A program made the position numbers and the translations under genes. Under the pieces are notes generated by a model, which saw nothing but the letters and a program-made list of their open reading frames with translations, made no database searches and was not told where the DNA came from. From the sequence record PZ445439.1: DNA of 64,000 nucleotides, one strand, 5' to 3'. The DNA is from a phage. Shown one piece after another: positions 40,023-40,478 of this stretch (position 1 is its first letter; each line of letters begins with the position of its first letter).

Positions 40023-40478
40023 TTATTTTAAATCGTCTGCCCAATCGAGTTTAAGAGGCTCTTTGTATTCACGGTCAAGTACAACCGGAATTTGTACATC
40101 ACCGCTAAATGATAAGGGCCCAACATTATAAGACAATGTTATATGCGGTGTGTAATCATCAAAATCATGTGTAGCACCTAGTGCCCGCGCATACATGTGT
40201 CGACAGCGCAGATATTCAGAATCTAGCACAAGTACAAGAGTCGATCCATCTTGTGTTTTCCATACTTCTAAATGTCCAGAAGAAGCTACTTCAAAACTTC
40301 CGCTTGATGGAACATATGGAACATTTACTCTCGAATAACATATGGTCGAATGAATTTTTTCTCTAGGAACTGGATTAGGAACACGTAAAGAGCGCTGAAG
40401 TTCTTCCAGCGCATCAAGTGTTAATTCTGAAAACTTAGCTGCTACATAAAGACCCGTTGAAAAGTCTTTAAATTCCAT
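40023..40478 (-). CDS. 57B: 2H phosphoesterase, anti-CBASS protein Acb1 (gp57B)
   Basis: 151 aa; two H-x-T-x motifs (HSTI, HITL) of 2H phosphoesterase fold; position upstream of 57A/gene 1. Confidence 0.75.

Follow-up and report, generated by a model that had tools for sequence, protein, structure and literature searches.

Genes 57B and vs.4 of a T4-like phage and their relation to the anti-CBASS proteins Acb1 and Acb2

Gene 57B and its junction with 57A

The DNA analyzed here is a window of 64,000 nucleotides from the phage record PZ445439.1, and all positions given below refer to this entire window. On the minus strand, an open reading frame with an ATG start (40023..40478) encodes a protein of 151 residues that we identified as the 2H phosphoesterase Acb1, the product of gene 57B. 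The translation matches the Pfam family PF23474 from end to end (profile positions 1–144 of 144, E = 2.6e-60, 202.7 bits, cut-off 27). Residues 8–148 align with Acb1 of Erwinia phage FBB1 (PDB 7T26 and 7T27, E = 4.1e-62), and the entire protein is identical to residues 2–152 of T4 gp57B (NP_049750.1; 151/151). Nine of the 456 nucleotides in the coding sequence differ from T4, all of them synonymously. The single "nonsynonymous" change that appears in the Nei–Gojobori estimate for this gene is a path-averaging artefact at a CTT/TTA leucine codon.

A preliminary description of this DNA had assigned the frame to 57B because of its place and because it contains the two H-x-T/S-x motifs of 2H phosphoesterases. 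Both motifs are present. The first, H43-S-T45 (40344..40352, minus strand), corresponds to H44 and T46 in T4; the second, H112-I-T114 (40137..40145, minus strand), corresponds to H113 and T115. The HxT/HxT tetrad is thus complete and the same as in T4, where these residues are catalytic and where the substitutions H44A/H113A inactivated the enzyme (Hobbs et al. 2022, PMC9117128). The alignment to T4 Acb1 that had been proposed as a check returned the full identity reported above, and the catalytic histidines, the loss of which had been named as an argument against the assignment, are both in place. A single-sequence AF2 model of the protein reached a mean pLDDT of only 37.9, and the putative 2H fold of this protein rests on homology to 7T26. 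NCBIfam holds no model for Acb1 or for Acb2.

The surroundings of acb1 also correspond to those of 57B in T4. The gene for the tail-fibre chaperone 57A (40478..40720, minus strand; PF17594 GP57, E = 5.2e-51) lies directly upstream, preceded by the ORF for the gene 1 dNMP kinase (40720..41472). An internal-protein gene matching PHROG 8111 (39711..39962, minus strand, with a 77-residue product encoded by 39711..39944) lies downstream. This order equals the ipI-57B-57A-1 arrangement in the T4 reference annotation, so that in both phages 57A lies on one side of acb1 and an internal-protein gene on the other; the preliminary description had placed the frame exactly where 57B lies in T4.

The TAA stop codon of 57A shares one base with the ATG of acb1 (TAATG). 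At this junction T4 reads ATGATGGAA and the window reads ATAATGGAA (40476..40481, minus strand), which amounts to a single G-to-A change. As a consequence, the first ATG annotated for 57B in T4 becomes ATA, and the 57A stop changes from TGA to TAA. With the first ATG gone, Acb1 must start at the methionine that is residue 2 in T4, and therefore comprises 151 residues here instead of the 152 annotated for T4. This observation suggests that the second ATG is sufficient in T4 too, where it is perhaps the real start.

The internal-protein gene beside acb1 is not T4 ipI. Its 77-residue product has only its first 14 residues in common with T4 IPI, and these presumably form the capsid-targeting leader. 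The T4 protein IPI* inhibits the restriction enzyme GmrSD. This counter-defence may be missing from the present phage, or the ipI locus may encode another injected protein.

Gene vs.4 and its surroundings

The second gene of interest, acb2 (gene vs.4; 27405..27671, minus strand), encodes a protein of 88 residues that we assigned as a cyclic-dinucleotide sponge. The preliminary description had suggested this identity from synteny only, and it is borne out by several comparisons. The protein matches the Acb2/Tad1 hairpin family PF24729 (E = 1.4e-19, 70.5 bits, cut-off 27) and PHROG 717 (E = 5.6e-33), the family by which Vs.4 homologues were listed in earlier work (Jenson et al. 2023, PMC10097602). 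It also matches PDB 7UQ2 (T4 "Vs.4", E = 1.7e-52), which is the cGAMP-bound crystal structure of T4 Vs.4/Acb2 (Jenson et al. 2023, PMC10097602). The alignment to T4 Vs.4 (NP_049728.1) that had been asked for shows 82 of 88 identical residues (93%), and a lack of similarity to Acb2, which had been named as the outcome that would speak against the suggestion, is not what we found.

T4 Vs.4 binds cGAMP with a Kd of approximately 30 nM, and the residues that contact this ligand, form the hexamer interface or cap the helices are known, as is the interference of the substitution S74N with cGAMP interactions (PMC10097602). All six contact residues (Y8, H11, K23, S74, R79 and F82) are identical in the window and in T4. 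The interface residues L29, F33, A66, A73 and A77, the helix cap T12 and L60 are unchanged, and D61 and T68 are also as in T4. A single-sequence AF2 model of the protein (pLDDT 87.2) folds into a helical hairpin with helices at residues 10–45 and 50–81 and a turn at 46–49. Foldseek searches with this model returned 7UQ2 as the best PDB match (E = 1e-9, TM 0.74), followed by the structures 8H2X and 8H2J of Acb2 from the Pseudomonas phage PaMx33.

The PaMx33 protein is only about 24% identical to Acb2 of the window, and yet the predicted hairpin fold is the same (TM approximately 0.71–0.72). The tyrosine and lysine that bind cyclic dinucleotides in PaMx33 (Y11 and K26) correspond to Y8 and K23 here. 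The cyclic-trinucleotide pocket of the PaMx33 type combines an arginine at the R67 position with a threonine at the T74 position. The Acb2 protein in the window has D61 in place of R67, which is needed for cA3 binding in PaMx33, and T68 at the position of T74; D61 is also found in T4. The T4 protein binds cyclic dinucleotides; it binds neither cA3 nor cAAG, and introducing D61R did not rescue this binding (Cao et al., PMC10312549). Since D61 and T68 are as in T4, Acb2 of the window would be expected to bind dinucleotides only.

The gene is embedded in the same order as in the T4 reference annotation, namely regB-vs.3-vs.4-vs.5-vs.6, and its product has the same length as in T4. The regB endoribonuclease gene (26606..27067, minus strand; PF10715 REGB_T4, E = 9.6e-69) had served as the synteny anchor. 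The preliminary description counted vs.4 as the second gene after regB, and it is indeed the second gene from it, lying upstream on the minus strand. Between the two lies vs.3 (27127..27405, minus strand; PHROG 2037, E = 5.9e-40, and alignment to T4 vs.3), the ATG of which overlaps the TAA of acb2 (TAATG). On the upstream side, vs.5 (27664..27885, minus strand; 73 residues, PHROG 1986, E = 1.3e-43) overlaps the start of acb2 with its 3' end by 8 nt (ATGATTGA), and the stop codon of vs.6 has one base in common with the start codon of vs.5. This tight packing of frames at vs.6/vs.5/acb2/vs.3, like that at 57A/acb1, is compatible with translational coupling.

A scan for sigma-70 promoters around acb1 and acb2 returned nothing above the shuffled expectation, and a scan for intrinsic terminators around the same two genes returned weak terminator-like signals only, none of which lies convincingly downstream of acb1 or acb2 on the strand of that gene. 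We infer from T4 that both genes would be expressed in this phage.

The vs.5 gene differs from that in the T4 reference. It is intact in the window and in the phages Bas43 and JoYop, and its 73-residue product gives a full-length match to PHROG 1986. In the T4 reference sequence, one nucleotide is deleted following codon 17, and the frameshifted product has 58 residues, with unrelated sequence beyond this point. Furthermore, T4 vs.5 ends 36 nt upstream of vs.4 instead of overlapping it. The T4 annotation of vs.5 seems to reflect either a frameshift variant or an error in sequencing.

Relation to T4 and competing readings

The window is a mosaic segment of a Tequatrovirus (T4-like) genome with 95–99% nucleotide identity to hundreds of Tequatrovirus genomes. 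Queries of 2.5 kb and 3 kb taken from it matched more than 800 phage records each, with best matches that were 96–99% identical. The best records for a 24-kb query covered 87–91% of it at approximately 95% identity. These matches mark the window as a mosaic relative rather than a duplicate of any genome already deposited. The two anti-CBASS genes differ in their distance to T4: by the pairwise Nei–Gojobori estimate, vs.4 has a dS of 0.50 and 57B one of 0.08, roughly a 6-fold difference. This gap points to different recombination histories of the two genes relative to T4, and it fits the mosaic ancestry that is typical of these phages.

Homologues of both proteins are widespread. A tblastn search of the phage collection gave 1470 records with Acb1, of which 498 reach at least 99% identity, and 1231 records with Acb2. 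Most of these homologues are annotated as "hypothetical protein", and some of the Acb1 copies as "RNA ligase". One of the records, PV654520.1, is named "Pseudomonas phage vB_PSGBLB0006" with P. aeruginosa ATCC 9027 as the host, and it encodes proteins that are 100% (Acb1) and 98.9% (Vs.4) identical to those of the window. Such similarity is unexpected for a Pseudomonas phage, and the record may represent a mislabelled or contaminating Tequatrovirus.

The six substitutions that separate Acb2 of the window from the T4 protein are E13D, L44F, N46S, C50D, F52L and K54N. None of them affects a published functional residue. Five are shared with the common allele found in Bas43 and JoYop, and only K54N is particular to the window; the collection of phages searched holds no identical Acb2 protein including K54N, the best match being 98.9% identical. 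All but E13D fall into a variable patch comprising codons 44–54 (27510..27542, minus strand). In the AF2 model this patch would surround the hairpin turn, at the end opposite to the N- and C-terminal residues that contact the ligand. The dN/dS ratio to T4 (pairwise Nei–Gojobori) is approximately 0.07 for the whole gene, 0.16 for codons 43–55 and 0.014 for the remainder, with 6 of the 7 estimated nonsynonymous changes located in codons 43–55. We found no sign of positive selection in this patch, although a comparison of 13 codons with saturating dS has low power. These estimates indicate that purifying selection probably acts on vs.4, with a relaxed constraint at the tip of the hairpin.

Three other readings of these data deserve consideration. 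The 2H fold is common to LigT enzymes, PHROG 755, which the 57B product matches, carries the label "RNA ligase", and the same product name appears in the T4 RefSeq record and in several other phage records. From these labels one might conclude that 57B encodes a 2'-5' RNA ligase or a LigT-like RNA-repair enzyme instead of an anti-CBASS nuclease. We consider this reading extremely unlikely. The label is an outdated name that was transferred by homology from the 2H superfamily, and a dedicated Acb1 family, which the 57B product matches over its full length, now exists in Pfam. More directly, the identical protein from T4 cleaves cyclic oligonucleotides 3' of adenosine in a metal-independent reaction, and deletion of acb1 from T4 abolishes its anti-CBASS activity (Hobbs et al. 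2022, PMC9117128). Since the window encodes the same protein, the mechanism established for T4 should carry over directly. A second reading concerns the start of vs.4. The preliminary description had correctly pointed to Acb2 but had given the gene as ORF 27405..27707 (minus strand), the maximal frame of 100 residues, and this frame is indeed open from the TTG at 27707. The resulting protein would be Acb2 with an N-terminal extension of 12 residues. However, this TTG lies inside vs.5 and has no Shine–Dalgarno sequence upstream, whereas the ATG at 27671 is preceded at a spacing of 8 nt by GAGGA (27680..27684, minus strand), a ribosome-binding site within the 3' end of vs.5. The annotations of T4, Bas43 and JoYop all give vs.4 as 88 residues, the crystallized protein (7UQ2) begins at the methionine encoded at 27671, and the ligand pocket needs Y8 near the N-terminus (PMC10097602). 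We therefore give almost no credence to the longer protein and place the start of acb2 at 27671.

The third reading starts from the patch described above. The Acb2 allele could be functionally altered by the tip substitutions including K54N, with a changed ligand spectrum, a changed oligomer stability or a changed recognition by a guard system such as Panoptes. The clustering of five of the six substitutions in residues 44–54, the higher dN/dS of codons 43–55 compared to the rest of the gene and the absence of K54N from other phages in the collection could be taken in this sense, and conflicting selection on Acb2 from CBASS and Panoptes is known (PMC12657218). We judge such an alteration to be very unlikely. 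The patch would lie where the predicted hairpin is closed, far from the ligand-contact residues; its dN/dS is still well under 1; and four of its five changes belong to an allele that is common to many phages. In the published mutants that escape Panoptes, Acb2 has lost its function or is altered at the binding site, as in F82C, and not at the tip (PMC12657218). It is similarly improbable, in our estimate, that the tip cluster, with K54N, reflects diversification of a surface driven by the host, for instance by a host factor that recognizes Acb2, instead of neutral drift of a loop. We retain the assignment of vs.4 as an ordinary acb2 allele.

Expected action on CBASS and further differences from T4

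Sequence identity, family membership, conservation of published functional residues, synteny and the predicted fold of Acb2 are the grounds for both gene assignments. Together they make it almost certain that this is a T4-like E. coli phage equipped with both known T4 counter-defences against CBASS, Acb1 (57B) and Acb2 (vs.4). We infer the activities of the two proteins in this phage from their published T4 counterparts, to which Acb1 is identical and Acb2 is 93% identical.

During infection, CBASS cyclases would produce cyclic di- and trinucleotides that switch on lethal effectors. By analogy to T4, Acb1 would act as a metal-independent 2H phosphoesterase and degrade those signals that contain an adenosine with a 3'-5' bond. 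The two-helix hairpin of Acb2 would assemble into a hexamer whose dimer interfaces accommodate three cyclic dinucleotides, with the bases stacked on Y8 and F82 and polar contacts provided by H11, K23, S74 and R79. This sequestration would keep cyclic dinucleotides from the CBASS effectors, and trinucleotides such as cAAA would be left to Acb1. Conversely, some signals that are not cleaved by Acb1 are covered by Acb2 (Cao et al., PMC10312549). The sponge may also come at a price: sequestration of 2',3'-c-di-AMP by T4 Acb2 triggers Panoptes, and phages that escape this defence have lost Acb2 function, as exemplified by F82C (PMC12657218). Since the binding site is intact in the window, including Y8 and F82, we would expect the phage to escape CBASS and to be sensed by Panoptes.

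Both genes are known and characterized anti-defence genes; they are intact, lie in their usual places and are ordinary for this group of phages. With this equipment, which matches that of T4, the phage should be able to evade most CBASS systems, and this finding adds little new biology. Its value lies in annotation, where the names acb1 and acb2 can replace "hypothetical protein" and "RNA ligase" in related records, and where the start of vs.4 is correctly placed at 27671.

Other regions of the window depart from T4. The denV gene (30547..30972, minus strand) is flanked by internal-protein-like genes within 29298..31315 (minus strand). Three of them lie on the same side of denV and encode 192 residues (29298..29876, PHROG 5341), 104 residues (29902..30216, PHROG 3966) and 86 residues (30280..30540, PHROG 2667); the fourth, on the other side, encodes 98 residues (31019..31315, PHROG 3499). 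All four are on the minus strand. T4 carries denV, ipII and ipIII at this locus, an arrangement different from that in the window, and the locus flanking denV is hypervariable.

A cluster of eight tRNA genes occupies 36350..37706 (minus strand). An ORF of 221 residues (36430..37095) lies between tRNA-Arg and the other tRNAs, at the site where T4 has the homing endonuclease segB. One tRNA with a CAT anticodon was called "Met" by ARAGORN, whereas the T4 record lists the corresponding gene as tRNA-Ile. Between this cluster and trna.3, T4 has the single gene trna.2. In the window, the corresponding region (37793..38981, minus strand) contains three ORFs of 171, 99 and 126 residues, which have no match in Pfam and fall into PHROG 2290, 2023 and 4301, respectively.
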